NCBI GenBank assembly: GCA_965219995.1
Contig: CBDCOX010000002.1
Coordinates: 2,944,001-3,008,000 of the forward strand
Direction: 5' to 3'
Length of the DNA stretch: 64,000 nucleotides
DNA from: Candidatus Latescibacterota bacterium
GTDB lineage: Bacteria; Latescibacterota; UBA2968; GCA-2709665
The notes under the pieces: model-generated
Seen by the model: only the letters and a program-made list of their open reading frames with translations
Database searches by the model: none
What the model was told of the DNA's origin: nothing
Program-made: the position numbers and the translations under genes
Shown here: piece after piece, positions 25,279 to 41,912 of the stretch
Layout: each line of letters opens with the position of its first letter
How positions within the stretch are numbered: position 1 is the stretch's first letter

Positions 25279-26010
25279 ATGTCAAAACTGAAGGGAAAGG
25301 CCGCGCTGGTAACCGGCGGAAATCAGGGCATCGGAAAGGGAATCGCGCGGGCGCTGGCCAAAGAGGGCGCGAACATCGTGCTGACCGCCAGAACGGTCGG
25401 TAAGCTTGAATCGGCGGCGGCAGAGATCCGGACGGAAGGCGTGGAGGCGCTGGTCGCCCCCGCGGACGTCACGGACGAGTCCCAGGTGGAGTCCGTATTC
25501 GCGCAGACGATGGAACGTTTCGGCAGGCTGGATGTTCTGGTGAACAACGCGGCCGCCTTTGACGGGGGAAGAATCGACGAACTTTCCGCGTCGTCCTGGG
25601 ACTGGGCGATGGCGGTGAATCTTCGCGGGCCCTTCCTGTGCACCCGGGCGGCGTTTCGCATCATGAAGGAACAGGGCGGTGGTCGAATTATTAATATAGG
25701 CAGTATTTCCGCGCAGAGGGTTCGCCCGAATTCGGCGCCGTACAGCACGAGCAAGTTCGGCATCACCGGCCTGACGCATGCCACGGCGCTGGACGGCCGG
25801 GACTACGGGATCGTATGCTCCTGCCTGCACCCCGGCAACACGCTGGTGGAACGACGCGAGGAATCCGACGCGCCCACGGACGACGAACCGATGATGACGG
25901 TGGATGAACTGGCGCAGGCCGCGGTGACCATGGCAACGCTGCCGCTCCATGTCAACATGCTGGAGGCGATCGTCCTGCCCGTCGGACAGCTGTACGTTGG
26001 CAGAGGTTGA
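25279..26010 (+). CDS. Short-chain dehydrogenase/reductase
   Basis: TGGNQGIG, LVNNA, YSTSK. Confidence 0.95.
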   Translation: MSKLKGKAALVTGGNQGIGKGIARALAKEGANIVLTARTVGKLESAAAEIRTEGVEALVAPADVTDESQVESVFAQTMERFGRLDVLVNNAAAFDGGRIDELSASSWDWAMAVNLRGPFLCTRAAFRIMKEQGGGRIINIGSISAQRVRPNSAPYSTSKFGITGLTHATALDGRDYGIVCSCLHPGNTLVERREESDAPTDDEPMMTVDELAQAAVTMATLPLHVNMLEAIVLPVGQLYVGRG

Positions 26011-26113
26011 ATGGGCAACTTATCTCCGGGACAGAACAATGGGAGTTTCTTTCGGCTTCCGGTTCTCTTCCTGTAAATCCCGTTCATCCATTTCATCCTG
26101 ATATGGATTTAGC

Positions 26114-26142
26114 TTGACACTCTCGATATGATTGTTTAATGT
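26114..26142 (+). promoter_or_regulatory. Sigma70-type promoter of the aromatic amino-acid cluster
   Basis: TTGACA-N17-TAATGT upstream of the leader peptide. Confidence 0.7.
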
Positions 26143-26222
26143 TAGACCGTTCCCGTTGGAAGGGCGGGTTTCCGCAACCCGGTACGCGACCCGCGGGACG
26201 CTGGATCATTGGAGGATTGAAC

Positions 26223-26330
26223 GTGACGGTTCGTGGTCGGAACAGGATTGCCTGGCGTGGATATTTTTACCGTTCCTACCGGTGGTATTACCGGGAGGCC
26301 GCGGAACGTCATGTCTGCCCACGCGAGTAA
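26223..26330 (+). CDS. Attenuator leader peptide, Trp/Tyr/Phe-rich, 35 aa
   Basis: GGAGG at 26211-26215, GTG start; MTVRGRNRIAWRGYFYRSYRWYYREAAERHVCPRE; overlaps the antiterminator arm. Confidence 0.85.
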   Translation: MTVRGRNRIAWRGYFYRSYRWYYREAAERHVCPRE

Positions 26331-26384
26331 ATCGTCAGCAAGTCTGAAAACCTGGCCGTGGGCATCTGCTCACGGTTTTTTTTT
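26316..26384 (+). promoter_or_regulatory. Transcription attenuator: antiterminator versus terminator
   Basis: Terminator CCGTGGGC-atct-GCTCACGG-T9 (26356-26384); TGCCCACG (26316-26323) is the exact complement of CGTGGGCA (26357-26364). Confidence 0.88.
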
Positions 26385-26419
26385 GATCTGCTCGAATTCA
26401 GTCCTGCCCTTGAAGACAG

Positions 26420-27910
26420 GTGAGATTCGTGAGTACGCCCGACCTGGAAATGCTGACGACGCTGGCTGACGGCCGGGGACTGGTTCCTATTTCCCGCGAG
26501 ATCCTCGGGGATACCGAAACTCCGGTGTCCGCCTATCTCAAGCTGCAGCCCGGGAGCCCCTACAGCTTTCTCTTCGAAAGCGTGGAAGGCGGAGAAAAGA
26601 TCGGGCGCTATTCGTTCCTGGGCGTGGCGCCGTTTCTTGCGTTTCGGTCGTGGAAATCCCGGATCGAGGTGCAGGATCTGAAGCGGGGCGGGATTCGCAG
26701 ATTCGAGGGATCGCCCATTGCCGAACTCCGGCGTCTGCTGAAGAAATATCGTTCTGCGCAACTGGACGGTCTGCCCAGGTTCACCGGCGGGGCGGTGGGC
26801 TACGTGGGCTACGACGCGATCCGGCTGATCGAAGATATCCCCGACCGAACGGATGACGACCACGGTCTTCCCGACGTTGTGCTGCTGTTCTACGATACGC
26901 TTCTTTGCTTCGATAACGCACGGCAGAAGATACATCTGATTTCCAACGTGCACACGTCCGGCGATATCGAGAACAACCGGCGTGAGGCGGAGGCGAGGAT
27001 CGACTCGCTGGAAGGGGCCTTGCGCGGGACGATTCCGGCGAACGGTGTTTCCCGGGAACCGCCGCGACGCGGGGCGCGCGAGATACGGTCCAACACGGAG
27101 CGATCGGTCTTCCTGGAGAAGGTGCGGCGCTGCAGGGAGTATATCGAGGCGGGCGATATTTTTCAGGTCGTCCTTTCGCAGCGCTTCGAGACGGAGGTAA
27201 CCGCCGGATCGCTGGACATCTACCGCGCGCTTCGGACGGTAAATCCGTCGCCGTACATGTTCCATCTGGATTTGATGGATGCGCAACTCGTCGGGGCATC
27301 GCCCGAACTGCTGGTGCGTGTCGAAAACGGCGTGGTACAGGTGCGCCCGATCGCGGGTACTCGCTGGCGGGGCGCCACGGAAGAAGAGGATGCCGCCCTC
27401 GAGGCGGACTTGCTGGCCGACGAAAAGGAACGCGCGGAGCACATTATGCTCCTGGATCTTGGCCGCAACGACGTGGGGCGGGTATCCCGATACGATACGG
27501 TACGGGTAACGGAACAGATGGTGATCGAGCGATATTCTCACGTTATGCATATTGTCTCGAATGTTCAGGGGCATCTCAGAGACGGCGTGGATGCGCTGGA
27601 TGCGCTCTATGCGTGTTACCCGGCGGGCACGGTATCCGGCGCGCCCAAGATCCGCGCGATGGAGATTATCGACGAGCTGGAGCCGACTCGCAGGGGGCCG
27701 TACTCGGGGGCGGTAGGCTATATTGACTTTTCCGGCAATATGGATACGTGCATTGCCATACGAACGATGGTGCTGCAAGGACGGAAAGCGTACGTCCAGG
27801 CGGGCGGGGGCATTGTGTTCGATTCCGTACCGGAATACGAGCACCAGGAAACGGTAAACAAGGCGAAGGCGCTGTTCAAGGCGGTCGAGTTGGCGGAAGG
27901 CGCGTTGTAG
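26420..27910 (+). CDS. trpE: Anthranilate synthase component I
   Basis: [54 protein letters not shown]; start may be GTG 26429. Confidence 0.96.
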
Positions 27911-27959
27911 CGGCAACCGTGGATGACGCGATTCCTCAGCAGTCACATTTCGGCGACCT

Positions 27960-28523
27960 ATGATCCTCGTAATCGACAATTACGACTCGTTCACGTACAA
28001 TCTGGTTCAGTACCTGGGTGAGTTGGGCGCGCGGATGGAAGTATTCCGGAACGACCGGATTGCAATGGACCGGATTGACGCGTCCCAACCCGAGAAGGTG
28101 GTGATTTCACCGGGTCCATGTACGCCGAACGAAGCCGGAATCTCCGTGGGCCTGATCCGGCGTTTTACCGGGCGGATTCCGATGCTGGGGGTCTGTCTCG
28201 GACATCAGTGCATCGGGCAGGCCTTCGGAGGCAGGGTCGTTCGGGCTCCCGCGATTCTTCACGGCAAGGTGTCCGAGATCCATCACGACGGTCGCTCGAT
28301 TTTCAAGGGGTTGTCGCAGCCCTTCATTGCGACGCGATACCATTCGCTGATTGTCGAGCGGGAGAGCCTGCCGGACTGCCTCGAGATATCCGCACAGACA
28401 CACGACGGTATCATCATGGGACTGCGGCACAGGGAGTACCCGGTCGAGGGCGTGCAGTTTCATCCGGAGTCGATTCTAACGGCCGAAGGCAAAGTGTTGT
28501 TGAAAAATTTCCTGGATGGCTGA
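27960..28523 (+). CDS. trpG: Anthranilate synthase component II (glutamine amidotransferase)
   Basis: [31 protein letters not shown]. Confidence 0.95.
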
Positions 28524-28583
28524 GTTGGCAGTCCGGGAATCGGAAGCCGGTTCCGGTCCCCGTTTGCGAGTTGGGAGACGGCG

Positions 28584-29597
28584 ATGGCAATACAGGATGC
28601 GATTGCGGAATTGATTGAGGGACAGGACCTGACCCGTGACCGGACGATCGGGTCGATGAGCCAGATCATGTCGGGTGAGGCGACCGACGCGCAGATCGGT
28701 GCGTTCCTGGCGGCCCTCCGGGTGAAGGGCGAGACCGCCGACGAAATTGCGGGCGCCGCGGAGGTAATGAGGGAAAAGGCGACGCGCGTCGTCACGCGGC
28801 ACGCCACGGTGGTGGATACGTGCGGTACCGGAGGCGACGGGGCGGGGACGTTCAACATATCGACAGCGGCGGCTTTCGTGGTGGCCGGCGCCGGGCTGTG
28901 TGTTGCCAAACACGGAAACCGCGCGGCGAGCAGCCTGTGCGGAAGTGCCGACGTCCTGAAGGAACTGGGAGTAAACATCGAAGCGTCGCCGGAGACGATG
29001 GGGCGGTGTCTGGATGAAGTTGGCATCGGGTTTCTGTTTGCTCCTGCTCTGCACGGCGCCATGAAGTACGCGATTGGTCCCAGACGCGAAGTCGGCATCC
29101 GTACGATTTTCAACGCTCTGGGGCCGCTGACCAATCCCGCGGGCGCAACCCGGCACCTGATCGGCGTCTACAGTCGATCGCTGACCGGCAGGCTTGCCGA
29201 GGTGTTGCGCACATTGAAATCGGAACGCGCGTTTGTTGTGCACGGGTTGGACGGGCTGGATGAAATCACCACGACCGGTCCGACGCGGGTGAGCGAGCTG
29301 AACGATGGAGCCGTAACAACGTACGAGATCCGGCCTGAGGATCTTGGCATCCGAAGGTCGACGCCCGGTGATCTGGCGGGGGGCAACGCCGAAACCAATG
29401 CGTCGATCCTGCGCAGGGTGCTCAATGGTGAGCACGGTCCGCGGCGGGACATCGTCGTTTTGAACGCGGCAGCCGCCATCGTAGCCGGTGGTGCGGCAGA
29501 CGATTTGAAGGCGGGTATCGAACTGGCCGCGGAGACCGTGGATTCGGGGCGGGCAATGGACAAGCTGGAAGAACTGAAACGGGCTTCTGCGGGATGA
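28584..29597 (+). CDS. trpD: Anthranilate phosphoribosyltransferase
   Basis: DTCGTGGDG, FNIST, KHGNR, GSADVL. Confidence 0.97.
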   Translation: MAIQDAIAELIEGQDLTRDRTIGSMSQIMSGEATDAQIGAFLAALRVKGETADEIAGAAEVMREKATRVVTRHATVVDTCGTGGDGAGTFNISTAAAFVVAGAGLCVAKHGNRAASSLCGSADVLKELGVNIEASPETMGRCLDEVGIGFLFAPALHGAMKYAIGPRREVGIRTIFNALGPLTNPAGATRHLIGVYSRSLTGRLAEVLRTLKSERAFVVHGLDGLDEITTTGPTRVSELNDGAVTTYEIRPEDLGIRRSTPGDLAGGNAETNASILRRVLNGEHGPRRDIVVLNAAAAIVAGGAADDLKAGIELAAETVDSGRAMDKLEELKRASAG

Positions 29598-29690
29598 AGC
29601 CGGCACCGAACGTTTACGATATCCTCGCCTTCGAGTTACGCCATGGACGGGACTGGCACCTGTTGGCGCGCGGAAACGAAGAAGGGGAAG

Positions 29691-30482
29691 ATGGCTACGA
29701 TTCTGGATGAGATCATCGCATATAAACGCCGCGTCGTGTCCGAGGCGAAGAAGCGGGTATCCCCTGAGGCGTTGCGGAAGCAGGCAAACCTGGTTCGTCG
29801 GCCGGACTCTCTGATGGACAGCCTGACTGCCGGGGAGGATATCGCGCTGATCGCGGAGATTAAAAAGGCATCTCCGTCCAAAGGGGTAATCAGGGAGAGT
29901 TTCGATCCTGTTGAAATCGGCCGATCTTACGAGAGAAACGGCGCGGCGGCCATTTCCGTGCTGACGGATGTAAAGTACTTCCGGGGCTCCGATGCCAGCC
30001 TGAGGGCGGTGAGCGAGGCCGTGGAATTGCCGGTGCTCCGGAAGGATTTCGTGGTTGATCCGTATCAGATCCACGAGGCCAGGACAATCGGCGCGTCCGC
30101 GGTTTTGCTCATTGTTTCAGCGCTTTCCCCGCGCGAATTGTCAGAGATGCTCACCGTTTGCAGGGAGTCGCAACTGGACGCGCTGGTGGAAGTGCACACT
30201 CCGGATGAAGCGAGGATGGCGCTGGATGCGGGCGCGGATCTCATGGGGGTGAATAACCGCGACCTGAAGACGTTTGCTACGGATTTGCAGACCACATTCG
30301 ATCTGCTTGAACACCTGCCGGACGATCTTGTCGTTGTGAGCGAGAGCGGCATCAGGACCAGAGACCAGGTCGTCCGGTTGAGGGATGCCGGCGTGGACGC
30401 GGTTCTGGTCGGAGAACATCTGATGCGCCAACCCGACGTGGGTCGGGAGCTTCGAGCGTTGCTGGGCATGGAAGGCGGCTGA
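29691..30482 (+). CDS. trpC: Indole-3-glycerol phosphate synthase
   Basis: IAEIKKASPSKG, LRKDF, GVNNRDL, SESGI. Confidence 0.97.
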   Translation: MATILDEIIAYKRRVVSEAKKRVSPEALRKQANLVRRPDSLMDSLTAGEDIALIAEIKKASPSKGVIRESFDPVEIGRSYERNGAAAISVLTDVKYFRGSDASLRAVSEAVELPVLRKDFVVDPYQIHEARTIGASAVLLIVSALSPRELSEMLTVCRESQLDALVEVHTPDEARMALDAGADLMGVNNRDLKTFATDLQTTFDLLEHLPDDLVVVSESGIRTRDQVVRLRDAGVDAVLVGEHLMRQPDVGRELRALLGMEGG

Positions 30483-30490
30483 TTCAACCT

Positions 30491-31153
30491 ATGGTTCGGG
30501 TGAAGATCTGCGGAATCACGAATCGGGAGGACGCGCTCTTTGCGGTCGCGCAGGGTGTGGACGCCCTGGGGTTCATCTTCTACGAGCGCAGCCCGCGTTA
30601 CGTGCATCCGGAACGCGTCGGCAGGATCGTGTCGGCGTTGCCGCCTTTCGTGACGCCTGTCGGGGTTTTCGTGAACACGGCCAGGGAGGAGATCCTGGCA
30701 ATAGCACGGATGACAGGGCTGCGGGCGGTCCAACTGCACGGCGACGAGACACCCGCCGAATGTCTGGGATATCCGATTCCGGTCATCCGGGCATTGCGGG
30801 TTGGCGACGGTTTCGACCCCGCTTCTCTGAGCGACTTTCCGGTCGACACGTTTCTGCTGGATACGGCCAAAAAGGGATGGTACGGCGGTACCGGAGAGAC
30901 GTTTGACTGGCGGGTCGCACGGGCGGCCGCGGCACACGGGCGGATCATTCTCTCGGGAGGAATCGATCCGTCGAACGTGGCGGACGCGGCGCGGACGGTG
31001 AATCCGTACGCGGTGGACTGCGGCAGCGGCGTCGAGGCCGCGCCGGGACGGAAGGACCACGACAGAATCGCGGAATTCTTCGAAGCGCTTCGCTCGGCAA
31101 CCCGCGACAACCGGCATTCCCGAACCCATCGTTCGAATTCATCCGGAGCCTGA
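30491..31153 (+). CDS. trpF: Phosphoribosylanthranilate isomerase
   Basis: VKICGIT, VQLHGDE, GGTGETFDW, SGVE. Confidence 0.96.
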   Translation: MVRVKICGITNREDALFAVAQGVDALGFIFYERSPRYVHPERVGRIVSALPPFVTPVGVFVNTAREEILAIARMTGLRAVQLHGDETPAECLGYPIPVIRALRVGDGFDPASLSDFPVDTFLLDTAKKGWYGGTGETFDWRVARAAAAHGRIILSGGIDPSNVADAARTVNPYAVDCGSGVEAAPGRKDHDRIAEFFEALRSATRDNRHSRTHRSNSSGA

Positions 31154-31157
31154 ACCC

Positions 31158-32420
31158 GTGGACATCATGAAAGATCTGGAGTTTCGGGGATACGTCTTTC
31201 AGGTAACGGACCCCGGCGGCCTTAAATCGCGACTCGACCTGGGGCCGATGACGCTGTATTCGGGGTTCGACCCCACGGCAGACAGCCTGCACGTCGGCAA
31301 CCTGATCCCAATACTGGGACTGCGGCGGTTTCAATTGGCCGGGCATCATGCAATCGGGCTTATCGGGGGCGGCACGGGTTTGATTGGCGACCCGAGCGGC
31401 AGCCAGGAAGAACGCCCGTTGAACCCGCCCGAGCTGATCGCGGAATATACAGGGAAGCTCACGGAGCAACTGGCCAGATTCCTGGATTTCGAAACGGGGA
31501 CCAATCCCGCCCGCGTGGTCAGCAATCTGGGCTGGCTTTCCGAACTGAAGGCGATCGACTTCCTGAGAGACACGGGCAAGCACTTCTCCGTGGGTTATAT
31601 GCTGGCGAAAGAGTCCGTGGCTTCGCGGCTGGAGTCCGGAATTTCCTTCACGGAGTTCAGCTATATGGTCATTCAGGCCTATGACTTCATGGAGCTGTTT
31701 CGGACGCACGGGTGTGAACTCCAGATCGGCGGAAGCGATCAATGGGGAAATATAACAGCGGGAATCGAGTTGATCCGACGGCGGCTGGGCGGACAGGCCC
31801 ACGGCCTGACGTTTCCGCTGCTGCAGAAAGCCGACGGCACCAAGTTCGGTAAGACCGCCTCGGGGACGGTCTGGCTGGACGCGGAAAAGACGTCACCGTA
31901 CCAGCTGTACCAGCACATGATAAATACCGACGACCGGGACGTGGTGACGTTTCTCAAGCTGTTTACCTTTCTATCCGAGGATGAGATCGGGAACCTGGAG
32001 CTGGAGGTGTCACAACACCCTGAGAAGCGGGAATCGCAACGCGTGCTGGCCGAGGAGGTCACCACTCTGGTTCACGACAGCGCCGCCACCGGGCGCGCGC
32101 ACAGGATTTCCGAGGCGTTGTTCTACGGTGATCTGCGCGATCTGAGTGCGAGAGAGATCGAGGAAGGGTTCAGCGACGTGCCGTCTCACGCGCTCAACGG
32201 CGTGGTGGAAGCAGGTCTGGTCAAACTTCTGGTGGATGCGGGCATTTCATCTTCGATGCGCCAGGCCCGCGAAGACGTCAGGTCCGGCGCCGTATATCTC
32301 AATGGACTGCGCTGCACCGATGTGGGCCGGACCCTCGCCCCTGACGACAGGCTCGCAGGCGGATACCTTATCGTACGACGTGGCAAACGCCGCTACTTTC
32401 TCGTACGCTGGAACCTTTGA
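31158..32420 (+). CDS. tyrS: Tyrosyl-tRNA synthetase
   Basis: GFDPTADSLHVGN, QIGGSDQWGNI, KFGKT, C-terminal S4 domain (RRGKR). Confidence 0.97.
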   Translation: MDIMKDLEFRGYVFQVTDPGGLKSRLDLGPMTLYSGFDPTADSLHVGNLIPILGLRRFQLAGHHAIGLIGGGTGLIGDPSGSQEERPLNPPELIAEYTGKLTEQLARFLDFETGTNPARVVSNLGWLSELKAIDFLRDTGKHFSVGYMLAKESVASRLESGISFTEFSYMVIQAYDFMELFRTHGCELQIGGSDQWGNITAGIELIRRRLGGQAHGLTFPLLQKADGTKFGKTASGTVWLDAEKTSPYQLYQHMINTDDRDVVTFLKLFTFLSEDEIGNLELEVSQHPEKRESQRVLAEEVTTLVHDSAATGRAHRISEALFYGDLRDLSAREIEEGFSDVPSHALNGVVEAGLVKLLVDAGISSSMRQAREDVRSGAVYLNGLRCTDVGRTLAPDDRLAGGYLIVRRGKRRYFLVRWNL

Positions 32421-32516
32421 CGGGCGGTTTCGGGACCGCTCTTGTATATGGGTATAGTAATCAGGTTCAGGATATTCGGAACCCGGCAGGAAAAACAAAA
32501 AGAGAGGATTCTTTCG

Positions 32517-33494
32517 ATGAAAGCACCGTGGATAACCTATCGGCCGGAACTGAAAGTACTCGATTGTACGATTCGTGACGGCGGATTGATGAACGACCAC
32601 CAGTTCTCCGATGATTTCGTGAGGGCGGTTTATGAAACCTGCGTCGACGCGGGTGTCGACTATATGGAAATCGGTTACCGGAACTCCAAGGAGATGTTTC
32701 CCAAAGACCAGTTCGGGGCTTTCCGACACAGCGACGAAGAAGATATCCGGAAGATTACAGGCGACCACGACCCGGAAACAACCGGCCTGAAGCTCGCCGT
32801 TATGGCGGACGCGGGCAAGAGTGACTGGGCGGAAGACATCCTGCCGGCAAGCGACAGCGTCGTCAGTATGGTACGGGTCGCCTGTTACGTGGAGCAGATT
32901 CCCGAGACCGTCGAAATGCTCTGCGACGCCCACGAAAAGGGATATGAGACCAGTTGCAATATTATGGCCGTCTCCACCGTGCAGGAGGTGGAGGTCGATC
33001 AGGCGCTGGAAGTCCTGATCGAGACGCCCGTCGGTACGATCTGCGTCGTTGACAGTTTTGGCGCATTGTACCGGGAGCAGGTGGATATGCTCATCCGGAA
33101 GTATATGGATGCCGTAAGCGGGACGGGGAAGGAAGTGGGTATTCACGCGCACAACAACCAGCAACTTGCATTTGCCAATACCATTGAAGCGCTCATACTC
33201 GGCGCAAACCGCGTGGATGCCACGGTGGACGGTCTTGGAAGGGGCGCGGGGAATTGCCCCCTGGAGCTGCTGCTGGGTTTCCTCCGCAATCCCAAATTCA
33301 AGATCCGGCCCGTCTACAAACTGCTGGAGGACCATTTTGTCAAATTGCGCGAAGAACTGACGTGGGGGCCTCTCGTTCCTTACAATATCACGGGGCAGCA
33401 CAATCAGCATCCACGCTCGGCAATGGCGCTGCTGGACGGGAAAGACCGCGATCGCTATCTGGCATTCTACGATCAGGTGATGAGGGACATCTGA
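32517..33494 (+). CDS. DRE-TIM (HMGL-like) metallo-aldolase, 4-hydroxy-2-oxovalerate-aldolase-like, substrate unknown
   Basis: LDCTIRDGG, GIHAHNNQQLA, GLGRGAGNCPLE. Confidence 0.85.
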   Translation: MKAPWITYRPELKVLDCTIRDGGLMNDHQFSDDFVRAVYETCVDAGVDYMEIGYRNSKEMFPKDQFGAFRHSDEEDIRKITGDHDPETTGLKLAVMADAGKSDWAEDILPASDSVVSMVRVACYVEQIPETVEMLCDAHEKGYETSCNIMAVSTVQEVEVDQALEVLIETPVGTICVVDSFGALYREQVDMLIRKYMDAVSGTGKEVGIHAHNNQQLAFANTIEALILGANRVDATVDGLGRGAGNCPLELLLGFLRNPKFKIRPVYKLLEDHFVKLREELTWGPLVPYNITGQHNQHPRSAMALLDGKDRDRYLAFYDQVMRDI

Positions 33495-33592
33495 TCGGGT
33501 GGCCCCTGCGCCGGCAGCTGGAAAACGGACTGACGCCCGCCCCGGCGAGGGTTTGAACCCACGCTGGGACCCCATCTCTACAGGATAGAAAA

Positions 33593-34804
33593 ATGGCACT
33601 TCCGAGAGCAGATGAACCATCCGGCACATTGCCCGACTCCGGGGGGCATTTCGGTCCCTACGGCGGGCGATACGTGCCGGAGACGCTGATGCCGTTGCTG
33701 GAGGACCTGGAGGCGGCGTACCGGGATAGCAGGGACCGTCCGGATTTCGTGAGTGAGCTGAACGGGTATCTCAGGGAGTTTGTAGGAAGGCCGACGCCGC
33801 TCTACTTCGCGAAGCGCCTGACCGCGGAACTGGGCGGCGCCCGAATCTATCTGAAACGGGAGGACCTCGCGCACACCGGCGCGCACAAGATCAACAACAC
33901 GATGGGGCAGATACTGCTTGCCAGACGGATGGGCAAGACGCGGATCATCGCGGAAACCGGCGCGGGCCAGCACGGCGTGGCAACAGCAACCGTGGCTGCG
34001 ATGTTCGGAATGGACTGCGAGATTTACATGGGCACGGAAGACATGGAGCGGCAGGCGCTGAATGTGTTTCGGATGCGGCTCCTCGGCGCAAGGGTGACGG
34101 GAGTGGATTCGGGCAGCAGGACCCTGAAGGATGCGATTAACGAAGCCATCCGCGATTGGGTGACGAACGTGGACGATACGTTCTACATTTTCGGATCCGT
34201 CCTGGGACCTCATCCGTATCCGATGATCGTTCGTGATTTTCAGCGCGTCATCGGAGTGGAGGCTCGAGAGCAGATCCTGCGGGCCGAGGGCCGGCTGCCG
34301 GAATGTCTTATCGCGTGCGTCGGCGGCGGCAGCAATTCCATCGGTCTGTTTCACGCATTTCTCGAGGACGCGGACGTACGGATGATCGGTGTCGAAGCGG
34401 GCGGGCATGGAATTGCCTCGGGCGATCACGCGGCGCGCTTTCAGGCTGGGGATCTGGGCGTGCTGCACGGGGCCAGGATATACCTCCTGCAGGACGAGGA
34501 CGGGCAGATCGCGCTGACCCATTCCGTTTCCGCCGGTCTGGACTATTCCGGAGTCGGTCCTGAACACTGCCATCTGCGAGACGCGGGACGGATCGAATAC
34601 GCGTACGCAACCGACGACGAGGCACTGAAGGCCTTTCAGCTGCTGAGCCGTACGGAGGGGATCATCCCCGCCCTGGAAAGCGCGCATGCGATCGCGTACG
34701 TGACAAGAGCCGCGCCTGAAATGGGCAGGGATGCCGTTGTCGTCGCGAATCTTTCAGGGAGGGGCGACAAAGACGTGCAGCAGGCGGCGAAGTTCCTCGA
34801 CTGA
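33593..34804 (+). CDS. trpB: Tryptophan synthase beta chain
   Basis: [40 protein letters not shown]. Confidence 0.98.
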
Positions 34805-34857
34805 GTGGAATCGTACCGCTCGTTCCAGGGCTGGAATCGACACACGGGATTGTTCGG

Positions 34858-35670
34858 ATGACAAGAATCGGAAAGCGGTTCGCATGGTTGAAGAAGACGC
34901 GAAGGACCGGATTCGTCGCATATATCACCGCGGGAGATCCGGACCTGGCAACCACCCGTAAACTGGCGCCGGAGCTTGAACGGCGCGGGGTGGACATTCT
35001 CGAGCTGGGTGTGCCTTTCTCCGATCCGCTCGCGGACGGACCGGAGATCCAGCGGGCGTCACAGCGGGCCCTGCGGCATCGGGTGTCGATCGGCGACGTG
35101 CTGGATCTGGTGTCGGACCTGCGGCGCGAGACGGAAATACCCATTGTGCTCTTTACGTATTTCAATCCTATGCATCGGTTCGGTCTTGAACGGCTCGTCG
35201 ACAGGGCGGCCGAAGCGGGGGTAGACGGCATTCTTGCGCTGGATCTTCCGCCCGAAGAAGCGGCCGAGTACAAGCGTCTGATGGGTAAACGGGGATTGGA
35301 CACGGTTTTTCTGATCGCGCCGACGAGCCGCGAGGATCGCATCCGTCGGATCGCTTCATCTACCAGCGGCTTTGTGTATTACGTGTCGCGCACGGGCGTT
35401 ACGGGGGAGCGGGACAGCCTGGAGGAGACACTCGGCGCAAGGGTGGCGACCATCAGACGACATACCTCGCTGCCGGTTGCGGTGGGATTCGGTATTTCAA
35501 CCCCCGAACAGTCCAGGGAGGTTGCGGGATACGCGGATGCCGTGGTCGTCGGCAGCGCAATCGTCCGACGAATCGCCGAGCGGCAGACGGACCCGGACCT
35601 CGTTCCCCACATCGGGGCATTCGTGGAAGAACTGGTGCAACCCCTGAAGGGAGCATCCAATGGACCTTGA
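34858..35670 (+). CDS. trpA: Tryptophan synthase alpha chain
   Basis: ELGVPFSDPLADGPEIQ, SRTGVTG, VGFGIS. Confidence 0.98.
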   Translation: MTRIGKRFAWLKKTRRTGFVAYITAGDPDLATTRKLAPELERRGVDILELGVPFSDPLADGPEIQRASQRALRHRVSIGDVLDLVSDLRRETEIPIVLFTYFNPMHRFGLERLVDRAAEAGVDGILALDLPPEEAAEYKRLMGKRGLDTVFLIAPTSREDRIRRIASSTSGFVYYVSRTGVTGERDSLEETLGARVATIRRHTSLPVAVGFGISTPEQSREVAGYADAVVVGSAIVRRIAERQTDPDLVPHIGAFVEELVQPLKGASNGP

Positions 35671-35953
35671 AGACTGGCGGAAGGAAATCGACGCCCTGGA
35701 TCGACAGCTCCTGGCGCTACTGAAACGACGCGCCGAATGTGCGCTTCAAATCGGCATGATCAAACAGACGATCGAACAGCCGATCTACGCGCCGGAACGC
35801 GAGACATCGATCCTCAACCGAATTCGCGAACTGAACGCCGGACCCCTGACCGACGAAGCGGTGCAACGAATATTTCAGCAGATTATCGATGAGTCCAGGC
35901 GGCTCGAACAGGAGCACGGCGAACGGCAGTCCGGAGACGTGAAACATCCCTGA
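35660..35953 (+). CDS. Monofunctional chorismate mutase (AroQ class)
   Basis: LEDWRKEIDALDRQLLALLKRR...ERE...IIDESR. Confidence 0.92.
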   Translation: MDLEDWRKEIDALDRQLLALLKRRAECALQIGMIKQTIEQPIYAPERETSILNRIRELNAGPLTDEAVQRIFQQIIDESRRLEQEHGERQSGDVKHP

Positions 35954-35967
35954 TTCATCAATGGAGC

Positions 35968-37005
35968 ATGCAGCGCATGGCGTTTACGAAAAACATGAAG
36001 ATTCCCACACCGGAAGCCGTGCTGGAGGAAATGCCGCTTCCGAAGAAACTGAAGGACGTAAAGGAGCAGCGGGATGCGGAGATCAGGGACATCTTCGCGC
36101 GCAGGAGCCGTAAATTTCTGCTGGTGATCGGCCCCTGTTCAGCGCACGATGAAGATGCAGTGTGCGAATACGTTTCCAGGCTGGCGAAACTGCAGGAGGC
36201 CGTCCGTGAAACGCTGGTTCTGGTGCCTCGCATCTATACCAACAAACCCCGCACGACCGGCGAGGGGTACAAGGGCATGGGGCATCAGCCGGACCCCCGA
36301 AAGGCGCCGGACCTGTCCGAAGGCATCTACGCGGTTCGTCAGATGCACATCCGCGCAGCCGAGGAGTCCCACCTGACGGCGGCCGACGAAATGCTGTATC
36401 CGGGCAATCTGCCTTATGTCGAGGACTTGCTGAGCTATATAGCCGTGGGTGCGCGGTCGGTGGAAAACCAACAGCACCGATTGACCTGCAGCGGCGTCGA
36501 CGTGCCCGTTGGAATGAAGAACCCGACGGCGGGCGATCTGTCTGTGATGTTGAATGCGATTCAGGCCTCTCAGATCCCACACGTCTTCATCTATAACGGA
36601 TGGGAAGTCAGCACCAGCGGCAATTCCCTGACACACGCCGTGCTTCGCGGCGCCGTGGACGTTAACGGGCGCAGTATGCCGAACTATCATTTCGAAGACC
36701 TGATGTACGCGGCGGCACTCTATGGTCAACGGCAGCTTGCCAACCCCACGATCGTCGTGGATACGAATCACAACAATTCCGGCAAGCAGTTCAGTGAACA
36801 ACCCAGGATCGGATTGGATGTGATCCGCAGCCGACGGAATTCAACAATACTGTGCGAAATGATCCGCGGGTTGATGGTTGAGAGCTATCTGGAAGAAGGC
36901 TCCCAGAACGTCAATGAAGGCGTGTTCGGCAGATCCATTACCGATCCGTGCCTGGGGTGGGAAGATACCGAGGCGTTCGTTAAGGAACTGGCGGAGGGGA
37001 TATGA
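35968..37005 (+). CDS. DAHP synthase, type I-alpha
   Basis: VIGPCSA, KPRTTGEGYKG, VGARS, VGMKNPT, SITDPCLGW. Confidence 0.95.
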   Translation: MQRMAFTKNMKIPTPEAVLEEMPLPKKLKDVKEQRDAEIRDIFARRSRKFLLVIGPCSAHDEDAVCEYVSRLAKLQEAVRETLVLVPRIYTNKPRTTGEGYKGMGHQPDPRKAPDLSEGIYAVRQMHIRAAEESHLTAADEMLYPGNLPYVEDLLSYIAVGARSVENQQHRLTCSGVDVPVGMKNPTAGDLSVMLNAIQASQIPHVFIYNGWEVSTSGNSLTHAVLRGAVDVNGRSMPNYHFEDLMYAAALYGQRQLANPTIVVDTNHNNSGKQFSEQPRIGLDVIRSRRNSTILCEMIRGLMVESYLEEGSQNVNEGVFGRSITDPCLGWEDTEAFVKELAEGI

Positions 37006-37083
37006 TAGCGAACGGGATCGGAAGACAGGAACGGAGCCGGACGTTCCGCAGGCGCCCCGGCCGCCGTTTCCGGGGATAACCGC

Positions 37084-38196
37084 ATGGCCAACGATCCTCC
37101 GTTTGCACGTGAGACCATTGCGATTGTGGGTGTCGGGCTGATTGGCGGTTCTCTTGGCGTGGGGTTCAAGAGTCTGGGCATCGGACGACGCATCGTCGGC
37201 ATCGGCAGGCGTGAGACGCTGGATGCGGCACGCAATCTGAACGTCATCGACGCGGGCTATCCTTACGAGGAACTCGCCGCCGGTATTCGCGAAGCGGCGC
37301 TCGTTTTCCTGTGCACCCCCATTGTACGTATTCTCGACCTGCTGCCGGAGGTGCTGGCGGCGGCGCGCCAGAATGCGGTCGTGACCGACGTTGGCAGCAC
37401 CAAGCACGCGGTTGTTTCCGCCGCGGCGGCCCATCGACGGGGCGGCGTGCATTTCGTGGGCGGGCACCCGATGGCGGGTTCCGAGCACCGCGGGGTTGGC
37501 GCGGCGGATCCGTTCCTGTTTCAGAATGCGATCTACGTACTGACACCCTCGCCGGACACGCCCGATTTCGTGGTCGATAAGCTCTCACGCCTCGTCAGGA
37601 CGCTCGGGGCGAGACCGATGAGGATGACGCCACGGGAACACGACCGGGCGGCGGCGGCGGTAAGTCACCTGCCGCAGATGATGGCCACAAGCCTCGTATC
37701 CATGATCGGACGGATGACCGAAGCCGAAGGGCTGCCGATCCGGATGGCGGCGGGCGGGTTTCGGGATCTCACGCGCATTGCTTCCAGCCCGTATGAGATG
37801 TGGCGGGATATCTGCCGAACAAACGCGTCCCAGATCCGTGAGATGATCGATCGGTATATCGAGTCGCTGGCGGCGCTTCGCGGGGCCGTGGACGGAGAAC
37901 GGCTGGAGCAGTCGTTTGCCTTTGCGAACCGGGTACGCGGTCAGATCCCGAAGGACTCCAAGGGGTTCTTGCATCCGCTGCACGAAATACTCCTGGTGGC
38001 GGAAGACAGGCCCGGCGTGATCGCCGACGTCGCCCGGACGCTGGCCGCGGCGAGAATCAACATCAACGACATCGAGGTGTTGAACGTCCGTGAGGGAGAA
38101 GGGGGCACCATCCGGATGGGTTTCGATTCGCGTCCATGCGCGGAACGGGCCGTGGACTTGCTGGGGAAGGCGGGATACAGCGTCAGATTGAGGTAA
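37084..38196 (+). CDS. tyrA: Prephenate/arogenate dehydrogenase with C-terminal ACT domain
   Basis: GVGLIGGS, TDVGSTK, GGHPMAGSE, SHLP, GFRDLTRIA, ACT motif EDRPGVIA. Confidence 0.94.
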   Translation: MANDPPFARETIAIVGVGLIGGSLGVGFKSLGIGRRIVGIGRRETLDAARNLNVIDAGYPYEELAAGIREAALVFLCTPIVRILDLLPEVLAAARQNAVVTDVGSTKHAVVSAAAAHRRGGVHFVGGHPMAGSEHRGVGAADPFLFQNAIYVLTPSPDTPDFVVDKLSRLVRTLGARPMRMTPREHDRAAAAVSHLPQMMATSLVSMIGRMTEAEGLPIRMAAGGFRDLTRIASSPYEMWRDICRTNASQIREMIDRYIESLAALRGAVDGERLEQSFAFANRVRGQIPKDSKGFLHPLHEILLVAEDRPGVIADVARTLAAARININDIEVLNVREGEGGTIRMGFDSRPCAERAVDLLGKAGYSVRLR

Positions 38197-38277
38197 ATGG
38201 ATGCATCCGGAACGGGAGACGATCGAGCGGAATCCATGTCCGTCCTGTAATGAATCCATTTTGAAAGTGGGGCGGTT

Positions 38278-39585
38278 TTGGAATTCACGGCCTTATTGAT
38301 TGCCGAAGGCGCGATCACGCCTTCATCCGGGCTGGTGGGGACGTGCGACCTCCCCGGCGATGCCGACGTGTCGATCATGGCCCTGGCGCTATCGTCCAAG
38401 GCCGATGGCGTCTCCCGGATTCACCGGTGTTCGCGAAAACCCGACGTCGAGCGTGCTGCGGGATTGCTGACGGCGCTTGGGATTTCGGTTGCGTGGGACG
38501 CCGAGACCGCGACGGTGACCGGCGGCCGCGTCCGGGCGCCCGCCGACGTACTGCATGTGGGTGGGTCCCTGGTTCTGTTCTCCTGTCTGGCGGGATTGCT
38601 GTCAAATGCGCCGTTTGTCACCAGACTGTCCGGGGCTTCGGCGGACGCCGGCGTCGACCGGTTATTCGAGGCGCTCCGCAGCCTGGGCGCCACCCCGGAG
38701 ATATCCCACGAGGACGGGATATCGGCGAGTGTCGGATTGGACAGGTTAACACCCGGATCCTACCGCGCGGGGCTTCCCGAACCGGCGGTGAAGTGCGGCA
38801 TGTTGATGGCCGGTGTAGGTGTGGACGGAATCGTCGAACTGGTGCAGGACAGCGGCGGAGATGACGATCTGGAAGTGTTGCTGCAAGCAGCGGGATGCGG
38901 TCTGAAAAAGGGGCGGATAAAGGGCGCCAGAGGTCGTCGGCTGACGTTGGAAGGCCCCGCACGGCTCCGCGGCGTGACTCACGTGTTGCCGGGCGGTTCG
39001 GATGCAGCGCTTGTTCTTTCGCTCGCGGCGGCGATGTTGAGCCGCTCCGAATTGACGGTAACTCATTTCGGACTGGATTCGAAGAGCCGCAGCATCGTGG
39101 ACCTGCTGCGCCGAATGAACGTGTCAATGGATATGGAGCAAACCCGGACTGAGTCCGGCTTTCCCGTACGACGCGTCCGGATCTGGTCGTCGGACTTGCG
39201 TGGCATAAAGATCGCCGGCGCGGCTGCCGGGCGCCTTTTGGACGAGCTCCCCATCCTGGCGGCCGCGGGCGCGGTTTCCAGGGGCGAAACGATCATTCGG
39301 AATGCCGAGGCATTGAGGGACGGCGAGGTAGACTGCATTTCAGTACTGGTGGAAAACCTGAGAAAGATGCAGGTTCAGGTCGGGGAGATGCCGGACGGAC
39401 TGGTTGTAAAGGGCGGTCAACCGCAGGGCGCCGAACTGGATGCCGCCGGCGACGCCCGCGTGACATTGGCGCTCACACTGGCTGCGCTTGCGAGCGAAGG
39501 GGAGACCCGTCTGAAGAACCCCGGCCCGGTGGACCGGATGTATCCCGGGATCATGGATAGATTGGCTTCGGTTTTGGACCGATAG
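38278..39585 (+). CDS. EPSP synthase (AroA)-fold protein with degenerate active site
   Basis: Full length and collinear with AroA (LPGD, VKCGMLMAG, LDELPILA, GETIIRNAEALR, PDGLVVKGG, MYPG), but most substrate-binding residues are replaced. Confidence 0.85.
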   Translation: MEFTALLIAEGAITPSSGLVGTCDLPGDADVSIMALALSSKADGVSRIHRCSRKPDVERAAGLLTALGISVAWDAETATVTGGRVRAPADVLHVGGSLVLFSCLAGLLSNAPFVTRLSGASADAGVDRLFEALRSLGATPEISHEDGISASVGLDRLTPGSYRAGLPEPAVKCGMLMAGVGVDGIVELVQDSGGDDDLEVLLQAAGCGLKKGRIKGARGRRLTLEGPARLRGVTHVLPGGSDAALVLSLAAAMLSRSELTVTHFGLDSKSRSIVDLLRRMNVSMDMEQTRTESGFPVRRVRIWSSDLRGIKIAGAAAGRLLDELPILAAAGAVSRGETIIRNAEALRDGEVDCISVLVENLRKMQVQVGEMPDGLVVKGGQPQGAELDAAGDARVTLALTLAALASEGETRLKNPGPVDRMYPGIMDRLASVLDR

Positions 39586-39669
39586 GCCGCGCAGGTCGTT
39601 CAAATGCCCGCCATGGATCGTCGCGGCACGATACGGTGTGGGTTAATCATCTGTACGAGGAGACTCCTT

Positions 39670-39810
39670 ATGAGACTGGTTGTCAGGTTGTTCCTCTTGG
39701 CGTTGCTCGTGTTTATGGGTGGTGTTGTTTTCATTCGGTACACCTACAAATGTTCCTGGAAAGAGAGTTTCGCAATTGCCGACCAGTTTGTGTCTGACCT
39801 GACCAGTTGA
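39670..39810 (+). CDS. Small single-TM membrane protein (46 aa)
   Basis: RBS GAGGAG; MRLVVRLFLLALLVFMGGVVFIRYTYKCSWKESFAIADQFVSDLTS. Confidence 0.65.
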   Translation: MRLVVRLFLLALLVFMGGVVFIRYTYKCSWKESFAIADQFVSDLTS

Positions 39811-39876
39811 ACGAGTGTCAGGACTTCGGCTGGCGGGACGCAGCCACAATAGAGTCCAAGTTTTGCGGGGCCCGTT

Positions 39877-40743
39877 TTGGGTATTGTCTCAACCACGCGG
39901 CTGCTGGGAGTGATTGGCGACCCGATTGCCCATTCGCTATCGCCGGACATGCACAATGCGGCCATCAGCGCTCTCGAAATGGACTACTGTTACGTGGCAT
40001 TCCACGTTTTGCCGGACGGGGTTGAACCGGCGCTCCGGGGAATGCGTGCATTGCAGATCCGGGGATTGAACGTAACCCTTCCCCACAAGACCGCGGTGAT
40101 TGGGCACCTCGATCAGACTTCGGAAGAAGCACTGGCCGTAGGTGCGGTGAATACGATCTCTTTCGAGGAGGGCGATCTCGTCGGCCACAATACCGATGTG
40201 TACGGGCTGGCCACCGCGCTGGAGCGGACGGCGGGCCTCGCGGTATTGCCGGAGCACTGCGTGATTCTCGGCGCGGGCGGCGTCGCGAGGGCCGCCGTTT
40301 ACGCGCTGGCAACGAATGACGACGTGCGCCGCGTGAGCATACTCAATCGGACCGTTGCCCGGGCGGAAGCGCTTGCGCATGACATGGAAAGGATCACGGG
40401 TAAGACGATAGACGCAGGCGACCTGACGGCAGACACCCAGTTGAGCGTGTTCGCGGATGCCGGCCTGGTTGTAAACGGGACGTCGCTGGGGATGGTTCCG
40501 GACGTGGAGCGGACGCCGCTGGCCGACACCTCTGCGATTCACTCTGAACTCGTTCTGTACGATACGGTTTTCAACCCGCTCGATACGCTGCTGATGCGGC
40601 AGTTCCGGTCCGCGGGCGCGCCGGCGTTTGGAGGACTTGACATGCTCGTGCACCAGGGTGCGCGTTCGTTTGCCATCTGGACGGGTGTCGAACCGCCCGT
40701 CGACGTCATGAAACAGGCGATTATCGGACGGTTTCGGGCATAG
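39877..40743 (+). CDS. aroE: Shikimate dehydrogenase
   Basis: HSLSPDMHN, NVTLPHK, GAVNT, GHNTD, GAGG, GLDMLVHQG. Confidence 0.96.
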   Translation: MGIVSTTRLLGVIGDPIAHSLSPDMHNAAISALEMDYCYVAFHVLPDGVEPALRGMRALQIRGLNVTLPHKTAVIGHLDQTSEEALAVGAVNTISFEEGDLVGHNTDVYGLATALERTAGLAVLPEHCVILGAGGVARAAVYALATNDDVRRVSILNRTVARAEALAHDMERITGKTIDAGDLTADTQLSVFADAGLVVNGTSLGMVPDVERTPLADTSAIHSELVLYDTVFNPLDTLLMRQFRSAGAPAFGGLDMLVHQGARSFAIWTGVEPPVDVMKQAIIGRFRA

Positions 40744-40745
40744 CG

Positions 40746-41471
40746 GTGGCGAGTTCCCATCTTCAGGAACGCAATGCCAGGCGGACATTCGTGCGTCAGA
40801 TGTTCGACGGCATCGCCGGCACGTACGATCTGCTGAACCACCTGTTGAGCGCCGGCGTGGATATTCTCTGGCGGCGATGGACCATCGACGCCCTCGAATT
40901 GAAAGCCGGCTGGTGGATCCTGGACCTTGCAACCGGAACGGGCGATCTGGGTCTCGAAGCGGCTGCCCGCGATTCGGGGGTGCGGGTTGTGGGTGCGGAC
41001 CTTTCCCGGCCGATGCTGCGGCTGGGAACCAGGAAAAAGGAGAAAAGACCCGGCCAGCTCTTTTTTCTGTGTGGAGACGCGGAGCGGCTTCCGTTCCCCG
41101 ATGCGCGGTTTCAGGCCCTGACCATTGGTTTCGGGGTACGGAACTTTTCGGACCTGGCGACTGGATTGCGGGAAATGCACCGGGTCCTCCGCCCCGGCGG
41201 CCGGCTGGCAATTCTGGAATTCTCCCGGCCCAGAGCGTTTCTTCTGCGCAGGGTCTACTTCTTTTATTTCAAATGCATCCTGCCCGGGATCGGCCGGCTT
41301 GTATCCCGGAATCCCCGGGCATATCGGTACCTTTACGAATCTGTAATGGGTTTTCCTGAAGGGGACGCATTCCTGAGACGTCTGGCGCGGGCCGGTTTTG
41401 TGGAACCTGAGGAACGCCGGTTCTCCTTTGGCATCGCCACACTCTACATGGCAAGGAAGAATGAAGAATGA
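40746..41471 (+). CDS. menG: Demethylmenaquinone methyltransferase (MenG/UbiE)
   Basis: MFDGIAGTYDLLNHLLSAG, LDLATGTGD, FGVRN, RVLRPGG, YLYES. Confidence 0.9.
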   Translation: MASSHLQERNARRTFVRQMFDGIAGTYDLLNHLLSAGVDILWRRWTIDALELKAGWWILDLATGTGDLGLEAAARDSGVRVVGADLSRPMLRLGTRKKEKRPGQLFFLCGDAERLPFPDARFQALTIGFGVRNFSDLATGLREMHRVLRPGGRLAILEFSRPRAFLLRRVYFFYFKCILPGIGRLVSRNPRAYRYLYESVMGFPEGDAFLRRLARAGFVEPEERRFSFGIATLYMARKNEE

Positions 41472-41483
41472 AGAAGGAGGAAT
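41456..41483. repeat. 7-mer tandem repeat (GAAGAAT-like, 4 copies)
   Basis: gaagaat gaagaat gaagaag gaggaat spanning the menG stop codon. Confidence 0.6.
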
Positions 41484-41884
41484 GGTTGGGTCCTCCTGAG
41501 GTTTATCCATAAGTATTCTGAAAGGTGACCTGCCGGCGGACGAACATCTGACAGCCAATCGCTGTCCTCGTCATTCAGACGCCAATCGGTCTACAATAGT
41601 ATTTCCTGATCGGAGGTCTCCCAGAGCAGAGCGCGCTGATCAGTCCAGCAACGCGGATTGTTGTTCTTCCGAGGATGTCAGGGCAGAGGATCCTGTGCAT
41701 CCTGTGAGGGGATTCGCGCGGTGCATATGGCAGGCCCCGCGCCCAGCGGCGACTATTCTAGATGCGGTAAGAGGGTAGCCGTGAGACGGTAGAGGATAGC
41801 GTTACCACAGTGTTTTCACGCTAACCGTGCCTGTTTCCCTACCGTTATCGTAACAACAAGAAATACGACAAGGCACTGAAACCA

Positions 41885-41912
41885 TCTCCCGTCTCCCGTC
41901 TTACGTCTCCCC
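41885..41912. repeat. 7-mer tandem repeat (TCTCCCG-like, 4 copies)
   Basis: tctcccg tctcccg tcttacg tctcccc. Confidence 0.7.

Follow-up and report, generated by a model that had tools for sequence, protein, structure and literature searches.

A putative composite attenuator with Trp, Tyr and Phe codons in the leader of a trp–tyrS–aro operon of Candidatus Latescibacterota

Which amino acids are sensed when the tryptophan genes of a bacterium share one operon with a tyrosyl-tRNA synthetase gene (tyrS) and with genes of the common aromatic pathway and its tyrosine branch? This question is raised by a locus of a Candidatus Latescibacterota bacterium which we analyzed in a stretch of 64,000 nucleotides (contig CBDCOX010000002.1, positions 2,944,001 to 3,008,000; in the following the window, numbered from its first letter). 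Here trpE is preceded by a short open reading frame (ORF) rich in codons for aromatic amino acids and by an intrinsic terminator. A first-pass annotation made from the letters of the sequence had taken this element for a leader peptide attenuator responding to any of Trp, Tyr and Phe, with Tyr dominant. We think that it is indeed a working composite attenuator of the ribosome-mediated type with Trp, Tyr and, more weakly, Phe as sensor codons, and we put the probability of this reading at about 80%.

The anatomy of the leader was read directly and checked with a script (Table 1). The TTGACA-N17-TAATGT promoter, the GGAGG motif, the GTG start codon at 26223 and the ORF of 35 amino acids listed in the first-pass annotation are all found at their places. 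The peptide reads (M)TVRGRNRIAWRGYFYRSYRWYYREAAERHVCPRE and its commonest residue is arginine (9/35). Codons 11–23, the block WRGYFYRSYRWYY, agree base for base with the content given before, namely 2 Trp, 5 Tyr and 1 Phe codons and thus 8 aromatics in 13 codons. The probability to find at least 8 aromatic residues among 34 is about 0.004 when compared to a rough genome background. The exact antiterminator arm of 8 nt which was said to lie inside the ORF just before the stop codon is there as well: TGCCCACG at 26316–26323 is the perfect complement of CGTGGGCA at 26357–26364. The terminator had been described as an 8-bp stem followed by nine T residues. The T9 tract stands, the stem is slightly longer and comprises 9–10 bp with one G·U pair included. 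This terminator ranks first of the 22 terminator-like sites found by a consensus scan of positions 25900–44000, and from the end of T9 it is 35 nt to the GTG start codon of trpE at 26420.

The same scan leaves out the promoter, as TAATGT agrees with TATAAT at just three of six positions. The promoter is supported by the conservation of TTGACA-N17-TA..(.)T across families. The TTGACA hexamer keeps its position upstream of the leader in nearly all regions of relatives that were read (TTGACT in one relative of genus g1), and at the same spacing the −10 hexamer appears as TAATCT, TATCTT or TAGAAT. A Shine–Dalgarno-like motif precedes the start in most leaders according to an automated search. The long 5′ untranslated region (UTR) is specific to the genus of the window, as the UTR is much shorter in other genera; it holds a predicted stem–loop which is part of the minimum free energy (MFE) structure in most folds and is absent with a ribosome at the stop codon.

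Is the element conserved? TrpE is present in all 41 relatives searched. In 29 of the 30 trpE loci fetched from relatives a short aromatic-rich ORF and a terminator are found upstream; the thirtieth locus is cut 140 nt before trpE. Where it could be measured by script, the stop codon in the 29 loci lies 26–31 nt ahead of the terminator match, and 19–27 nt ahead of the stem as called by the automated search. The latter search found the element in 63 of 64 regions over four families, with the single miss visible by eye, and in 61 of these 63 leaders the distance from stop codon to terminator is 19–37 nt; its starts are too far upstream in several leaders (e.g. L015, L026, L027, L181, L188, L199) and the counts are slightly inflated. 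A covariance model, R1, built on the alignment of the 29 leaders gives one strong match per genome, always beside trpE, in 52 of the 53 genomes of the window's order, and outside the order weak matches only (E = 4e-4 to 8e-3, 8 of 79 genomes). In families f3 and f4 homologues were located via trpE and not via model R1, and leaders are found in both f3 genomes examined and in all 13 f4 genomes which carry this trpE. Sampled genomes of four further families (f7, f8, f11, f14) have leaders of a W type (WxWR), and in the sampled genomes of f6, f9 and f10 trpE follows another gene and has no leader. Across families the ORF, its start site and the distance from stop codon to terminator are conserved while the nucleotide sequence diverges. 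Judged by this comparison, the leader is a real and conserved element, with homologues throughout the class and in four more families of the phylum.

Two side observations concern the trpE loci of relatives. A close TrpE (E ≤ 1e-120) is found in 13 of 41 sampled f4 genomes as compared to 40 of 41 with the tryptophanyl-tRNA synthetase gene trpS; much of this family may lack the trp operon or have another in its place. Further, between the terminator of the leader and trpE, seven loci of other genera (L015, L016, L018, L020, L021, L022, L027) show a promoter-like TTGACAAAT...TTATT together with a conserved ATAGAATTCTTACAGTTAT block, possibly an additional promoter and its operator; both the promoter-like motif and the block are absent from the window.

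The helices of the leader are conserved to different degrees. In the alignment of the 29 sequences the terminator helix is paired in 98.3% of the cells compared to 29–50% in slid controls, a CG↔UA exchange is seen in seven sequences, and RNAalifold recovers the helix independently. The antiterminator helix formed by regions 2 and 3 (helix 2:3) is paired in 87.5% of the cells. In family f4 the arms differ and yet are again complementary (GCGTCC/GGACGC versus TGCCCA/TGGGCA).

The geometry fits the logic of the trpL and pheL leaders of Escherichia coli as had been proposed for the window: the antiterminator arm is hidden under a ribosome that has reached the stop codon and stays accessible when the ribosome is held up at any of the eight aromatic codons. 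For folding, the ribosome was modelled as a footprint of 30 nt at the stop codon or at each of the eight aromatic codons. In a transcript which ends at 26366, thus before region 4, helix 2:3 has a pairing probability of 0.91–0.92 when no ribosome is present, and the same value (0.91–0.92) is obtained with a ribosome stalled at each of the eight codons. With the ribosome on the stop codon the probability drops to 0.00. The isolated hairpins have free energies of −18.5 kcal/mol (2:3) and −12.9 kcal/mol (3:4).

We suggest that attenuation proceeds in the following steps. Transcription would start at about position 26149, and translation of the 35 codons at GTG 26223. With an ample supply of aromatic aminoacyl-tRNAs, the ribosome would reach the TAA at 26328 and place its footprint over TGCCCACG (26316–26323). 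With this arm masked, the nascent CGTGGGCA (26357–26364) could pair with 26367–26375, the terminator would form and RNA polymerase would halt in the T9 tract ahead of trpE. When Trp-tRNA or Tyr-tRNA, possibly also Phe-tRNA, runs short, the ribosome would stall within 26253–26291. Its leading edge would then be at least 10 nt short of 26316, the antiterminator (26316–26323 with 26357–26364) would form first and the polymerase would read through into trpEGDCF-tyrS-trpBA-CM-DAHPS-tyrA-aroA(-aroE-ubiE-argS), where CM stands for chorismate mutase and DAHPS for 3-deoxy-D-arabinoheptulosonate 7-phosphate (DAHP) synthase. We infer translation of the ORF, a kinetic competition of the helices and the response to each amino acid from this anatomy, and likewise the any-of-three (OR-gate) response to aromatic shortage. 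If the leader works in this way, tyrosine limitation is predicted to induce the tryptophan biosynthesis genes, an unusual coupling between pathways.

Which of the codons count? For 14 leaders of the genus the aromatic core has 2, 4 and 7 variable columns at codon positions 1, 2 and 3, respectively; the fifteenth leader, L180, was left out of the codon table as its anchor string was not found. Of the 14 leaders, 13–14 keep the Tyr positions, which are either invariant or changed only between TAT and TAC or to Phe. The Trp codons are kept less well, W11 in 12 and W21 in 9 of the 14 leaders, and Arg codons change synonymously. From this pattern it follows that constraint on the Tyr codons is no weaker than on the Trp codons. 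Different genera use GTG, TTG or ATG as the start codon, always at one position. Sensing of Tyr and Trp is, by indirect evidence, well supported, and the case for Phe is weak.

A further answer comes from the genes which follow the leader. Operon maps were drawn from tblastn and family scans. The order of the window has the operon trpEGDCF-tyrS-...-trpBA-CM-DAHPS-tyrA-aroA-aroE-ubiE-argS and family f4 has trpEGDC-trpS-CM-tyrA-aroA-aroE-argS. In 48 of the 53 genomes of the order tyrS is located 3–7 kb downstream of trpE; in the other five it is elsewhere (G034) or there are contig breaks or no match (four genomes). In the 13 of 13 f4 genomes with this trpE it is trpS which is found 2.5–3 kb downstream. 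The leaders differ in the same manner. The trpE leaders of f4 are dominated by Trp (YWWRF) with Tyr enriched only 1.7-fold, those of the order are Tyr-rich (about 6-fold). Compared to the genome background the enrichment of W, Y, F and R is 3.7-, 6.2-, 1.9- and 2.2-fold in f1, the family of the window, 4.5-, 6.0-, 3.1- and 1.6-fold in f2, 4.1-, 4.3-, 3.3- and 1.2-fold in f3 and 6.9-, 1.7-, 0.9- and 1.9-fold in f4, all of them rough values because the background consists of all ORFs of at least 400 codons with spurious frames included (Arg 9.2%). From the synthetase coordinates and the leader codons we conclude that a Tyr-rich leader goes with tyrS and a Trp-dominated leader with trpS. The first-pass annotation had matched the codon mixture to the cluster as a whole. 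The match holds for the synthetase gene and fails for tyrA and chorismate mutase, which stand behind W-type leaders in f4 and f7.

Synthetase genes outside of the operon often have leaders of their own. In the genome of the window the stand-alone trpS (TIGR00233, 313 bits) has its own TTGACA promoter, a leader ORF with a WWW run and a terminator. Of the trpS loci examined, 17 of 20 in the window's family have a WW(W) leader with terminator, and none of 10 in the sister family f2. Conversely, in f4 a permissive automated criterion gives a short ORF of YRYYY type with a terminator ahead of the stand-alone tyrS at 24 of 30 loci, and one of these leaders is a weak full-length match of model R1. 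The swap of trpS and tyrS in an otherwise syntenic operon is a natural experiment on the tuning of leader codons, in which a displaced synthetase gene gains or retains its own leader for a single amino acid. The rule that the regulatory codons are the demand list of the operon becomes testable with three related switches (W, Y and W+Y+F). Most likely the Tyr block of the window serves the embedded tyrS together with the tyrosine branch.

Several points weigh against the composite attenuator. There is a single Phe codon in this leader. Helix 2:3 shows no two-sided changes within the order, and all 500 shuffles reach the observed values. The whole-leader MFE is unremarkable (z = −1.63; 11 of 200 shuffles fold as well). 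The duplex of ORF tail and terminator arm has a median of −14.5 kcal/mol against −10.0 kcal/mol for shuffled tails (median z −2.2), but only 13 of 63 ORF tails have at most 2 of 200 shuffles which are as good, and several leaders of f4 and of genus g6 show no such signal. With region 4 present the terminator has an equilibrium probability of 0.94–1.00 in every ribosome state; the switch therefore would have to be kinetic as in the textbook model. A strong conserved hairpin between regions 1 and 2 (1:2) is not predicted. A 9-bp register is paired in 68% of the cells, and RNAalifold gives a 4-bp helix GGCG:UGCC kept in at least 28 of 29 sequences; the probability of 1:2 pairing is near 0 in most folds of the leader. 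Given the lack of a strong predicted 1:2 helix, read-through is expected when the leader is not translated, unlike trpL of E. coli, and the folds predict that loss of the start codon would raise read-through rather than leave it unchanged.

The match of leader and synthetase has its exceptions, too. Genome G034 keeps a Y-rich trpE leader although its tyrS is 1.85 Mb away, and the leader of G053 (f3) has two Tyr and three Phe codons with no tyrS in the locus. The operons of f4 and f7 carry chorismate mutase and tyrA under a W-type leader; the Tyr enrichment therefore tracks tyrS and not the tyrosine branch. Moreover, the contrast between tyrS and trpS may go back to one or two evolutionary events, so that the genome counts are not independent and overstate it. 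Finally, the aroR leader of Corynebacterium glutamicum is reported, in a review, to respond to Phe and not to Tyr (PMC11802643). In G034 (L306, L307) we also observed that the operon is broken after trpD and that tyrS lies behind a repeat-rich region without a leader.

One can go beyond a fixed set of aromatic codons and regard the leader as a modular, rewritable address list of codons which evolves with the synthetase genes of the operon and in which Arg is possibly a fourth selected input. We consider this extension doubtful. The composite leader may have arisen by a merger of an ancestral Trp leader (F/Y-W-W-R) with the YRYYY-type leader of a formerly free-standing tyrS when this gene entered the trp operon. 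The arginyl-tRNA synthetase gene argS ends the cluster in f1, f2, f3 (G053) and f4, and Arg makes up 15–20% of the leader residues in f1, f2 and f4, 11% in f3 and roughly 8–12% in most outgroup leaders. A shortage of Arg-tRNA should also stall ribosomes ahead of region 2, and arginine starvation reportedly relieves trp attenuation in E. coli in part. Against Arg as an input, the Tyr leaders of stand-alone tyrS genes are interspersed with Arg as well and have no argS nearby, and the conserved GGCG:UGCC helix includes the Arg codon which follows Trp. Should the idea be correct, one attenuator would gate three synthetase specificities (Trp or Tyr, plus Arg) along with the aromatic pathway.

Could the leader be an ordinary trpL, sensing Trp only, whose Tyr and Phe codons are no selected sensors and persist because of RNA structure or ancestry? 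W-based leaders (WxWR, YWWRF) occur in a sister family and in four other families, and the ancestral state looks Trp-only. In g6 the Tyr run is always written with TAT without synonymous variation and, judged by eye, its flanks could pair as a hairpin, and a constraint at the RNA level is possible there. G034 with its Tyr codons and no adjacent tyrS fits such a scheme, as does the lack of a Tyr response of aroR in the review (PMC11802643). On the other hand, it is the Trp codons which are less conserved within the genus (W21 9/14, W11 12/14) than the Tyr codons (13–14/14, with TAT↔TAC exchanges), and the Tyr enrichment of about 6-fold is found exactly where tyrS is in the operon and falls to 1.7-fold where trpS is. 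The trpS leader of the same genome is purely of the WWW kind, and a high Tyr content is thus not the default for leaders here. In addition, five Tyr codons before region 2 must stall ribosomes under Tyr-tRNA shortage whatever their origin. Sensing of Trp alone is thus unlikely in our view.

Much less probable is that the peptide itself is functional, either as a TnaC-like arrest peptide which senses a free aromatic amino acid in the exit tunnel or as a trans-acting peptide like peTrpL; the signal would then be something other than codon supply. Non-aromatic residues are conserved indeed: Arg follows Trp or Tyr, Cys-Pro or Cys-Val is found near the C-terminus, and Pro stands two to four codons before the stop codon, and Pro close to the stop codon is reminiscent of TnaC. 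A role in trans of a trp leader peptide has been reported for Sinorhizobium. However, the Cys-Pro and Cys-Val codons overlap the antiterminator arm and differ between families in step with the terminator arm (TGCCCA/TGGGCA against GCGTCC/GGACGC), which gives an explanation of their conservation at the RNA level. W, Y and F interchange freely between lineages, which suits the counting of codons better than a fixed contact in the peptide tunnel, and the ORF is followed by a strong intrinsic terminator and not by a Rho site.

A leader RNA which binds a protein or a tRNA, in the manner of TRAP, of a T-box or of a new riboswitch, with an incidental ORF is hardly credible: the comparable aro-trp supraoperon of Bacillus is controlled by TRAP and many Gram-positive trp operons by T-boxes, and a GGTGGTA string at 26281 faintly resembles a T-box core, but the leader region has no T-box core GGTGGNACC, there are no runs of five or more (G/U)AG triplets and just four such triplets in 278 nt, Rfam gives nothing at E ≤ 1 on 25500–27000 and nothing at gathering score in the whole window (T-box included), and the ORF architecture is conserved across families as the sequence diverges.

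The composite attenuator resembles known systems in its parts. As in the trpL leader of E. coli there is a promoter, a Shine–Dalgarno sequence, a set of control codons in a short ORF, masking of the antiterminator arm once the ribosome stands at the stop codon, and an intrinsic terminator before trpE. E. coli trpL is said to carry WWR, and the pairing of Trp and Arg codons recurs in the window. In contrast to trpL, whose Rfam family is Trp_leader, the leader of the window has no Rfam match and mixes 2 Trp, 5 Tyr and 1 Phe codons, its operon adds tyrS as well as genes of the common pathway and the tyrosine branch, and no strong 1:2 hairpin is predicted for it, so that read-through is expected where a leader of the E. 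coli type super-attenuates. The mechanism would be classical attenuation: of the defining features that could be looked for, all are found except a convincing 1:2 hairpin, and no curated RNA family covers it.

Leaders with several amino acids are not new. In E. coli thrL (Thr and Ile) and ilvL (Leu, Val and Ile) one leader responds to several amino acids via interspersed codons. There the mixture reflects the branching of the pathway, whereas the mixture in the window also reflects the embedded synthetase gene. In Firmicutes trp and tyrS are under T-box control and the aro-trp supraoperon of B. subtilis is under TRAP. The latter is similar in that trp genes are clustered with tyrA, aroE and chorismate-pathway genes under one switch at the RNA level, and differs in mechanism, as the leader of the window has neither a TRAP triplet array nor a T-box. 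A leader with Phe-Tyr-Phe, aroR of C. glutamicum, attenuates the shikimate-pathway gene aroF according to two reports (PMC11802643, PMC4046766). As described there, aroR has three control codons and no Trp, controls aroF and neither trp nor a synthetase gene, and belongs to a different phylum. A Phe upstream ORF before aroF is described in Acholeplasma. Synthetase genes are controlled by leaders with cognate codons in the case of E. coli pheST and Streptomyces trpS and leuS (PMC11802643, PMC1262725). The stand-alone leaders of trpS (WWW) and tyrS (YRYYY) match these cases; in the window the synthetase gene shares its composite leader with biosynthetic genes.

The first-pass annotation knew of no described equivalent. 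For the lineage this stands, as our literature search found no attenuator for Latescibacteria; mixed aromatic leaders as such are not unprecedented, as aroR demonstrates. The search also found no leader with Trp, Tyr and Phe on an operon of trp, aro and synthetase genes and no Tyr-codon leader of tyrS; how new these leaders are may depend on the comparative surveys of Lopatovskaya et al. 2010 and Vitreschak et al. 2004. Textbook attenuation would thereby extend to a candidate phylum without a cultured model, in a form absent from Rfam, and a covariance model would let annotators mark such leaders.

The downstream genes were assigned with NCBIfam models (Table 1). Among trpE, trpG, trpD, trpC and trpF all but trpG pass the family cut-off, and trpG passes the trpG_papA subfamily model. 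Above their cut-offs are also trpB, trpA and chorismate mutase. The class-I DAHP synthase passes the aroFGH model with its best match falling just under the cut-off, and tyrA (302 bits, cut-off 414) and aroA (144 bits, cut-off 287) remain below. A gene of the HMGL-like aldolase family stands between tyrS and trpB in the window as well as in genus g6. Ahead of argS there is a gap of 570 nt (41472–42040) in which no ORF, promoter or terminator is convincing; several relatives have just 14–53 nt between argS and the preceding aroE or ubiE. The genome has one copy each of tyrS and argS, and trpS is located elsewhere (tblastn). The pheA gene is found 79 kb upstream of the window and no leader ORF was found at pheA.

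Table 1. Positions of the leader elements, the downstream genes and related leaders (window numbering unless a genome or locus is given)
Feature	Position	Strand	Basis or remark
−35 hexamer TTGACA	26114–26119	+	direct reading and scripted coordinate check
−10 hexamer TAATGT	26137–26142	+	17-nt spacer after −35
Predicted stem–loop in 5′ UTR	26151–26198	+	MFE folds
Shine–Dalgarno GGAGG	26211–26215	+	7 nt before GTG 26223
Leader ORF, 35 codons and TAA (26328–26330)	26223–26330	+	start GTG; (M)TVRGRNRIAWRGYFYRSYRWYYREAAERHVCPRE
Regulatory codon block WRGYFYRSYRWYY, codons 11–23	26253–26291	+	W11, Y14, F15, Y16, Y19, W21, Y22, Y23
Candidate region 1, GGCG of Trp-Arg codons	26254–26257	+	pairs with UGCC of region 2
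Region 2, antiterminator arm TGCCCACG	26316–26323	+	inside ORF, ends 4 nt before stop codon
Region 3, terminator 5′ arm	26355–26364	+	folding, alignment, terminator scan, RNAalifold
Region 4, terminator 3′ arm	26367–26376	+	paired in alignment of 29 sequences
T9 tract	26376–26384	+	direct reading and scripted check
trpE, trpG, trpD, trpC, trpF	26420–31153	+	NCBIfam equivalogs
tyrS	31158–32420	+	TIGR00234, 377 bits
HMGL-like aldolase family gene	32442–33494	+	best match 4-hydroxy-2-oxovalerate aldolase, 125 bits, below cut-off 229
trpB, trpA, chorismate mutase, DAHP synthase, prephenate dehydrogenase (tyrA), aroA-like	33593–39585	+	NCBIfam
aroE, ubiE/menG, argS	39877–43741	+	putative co-transcription with leader; argS after 570-nt gap
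trpS leader, own genome outside window	G000:C2:3706281–3706358; locus L241:1182–1259	−	terminator 28 nt past stop codon
f4 tyrS leaders	loci L242, L247–L275, upstream of tyrS		examples MTRTIAYRYYYYASGG, MTTHRLRAYYRYYRSPGAFD

We also searched more widely. A strict scan of the genome for short ORFs followed by a terminator with T6 or longer gave 28 candidates, of which only the trpE leader is convincing. A relaxed scan gave 176 candidates and, among those filtered and listed, added the leader of trpS. An ORF with an Arg run at C2:3329249 was dropped as it has no biosynthetic gene downstream.

At the RNA level any part of the stretch was found only in four runs of one marine metatranscriptome study, as contigs. 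With 90–95% likeness these contigs cover 26188–26384, 26196–26399 and 26189–26399 in three of the four runs, and one ends at the last T of the tract. As contigs show neither ends nor strand, carry-over of DNA is possible and all come from a single study, we draw no conclusion from expression.

Scanning a whole sequence collection with the pattern of the terminator stem retrieved at least 120 stretches. Among the 80 that were read, 11 are this leader (seven records titled Candidatus Latescibacterota, three Gemmatimonadota and one uncultured bacterium) and the remaining 69 are common terminators from unrelated phyla. About 2 matches had been expected by chance, an estimate which was wrong because it did not consider that terminators are a selected class. 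An imperfect stem CCGTGGGC...GCTCACGG with a T-run occurs behind rpmJ, thioredoxin and other genes in more than 100 unrelated genomes, where it is an ordinary terminator, and therefore the sequence of the stem is not diagnostic of the leader. In three loci from records titled Treponema sp. (L071, L073, L089), met by chance, the same stem is preceded by short ORFs with runs of two to four His codons, which look like leaders of the His type.

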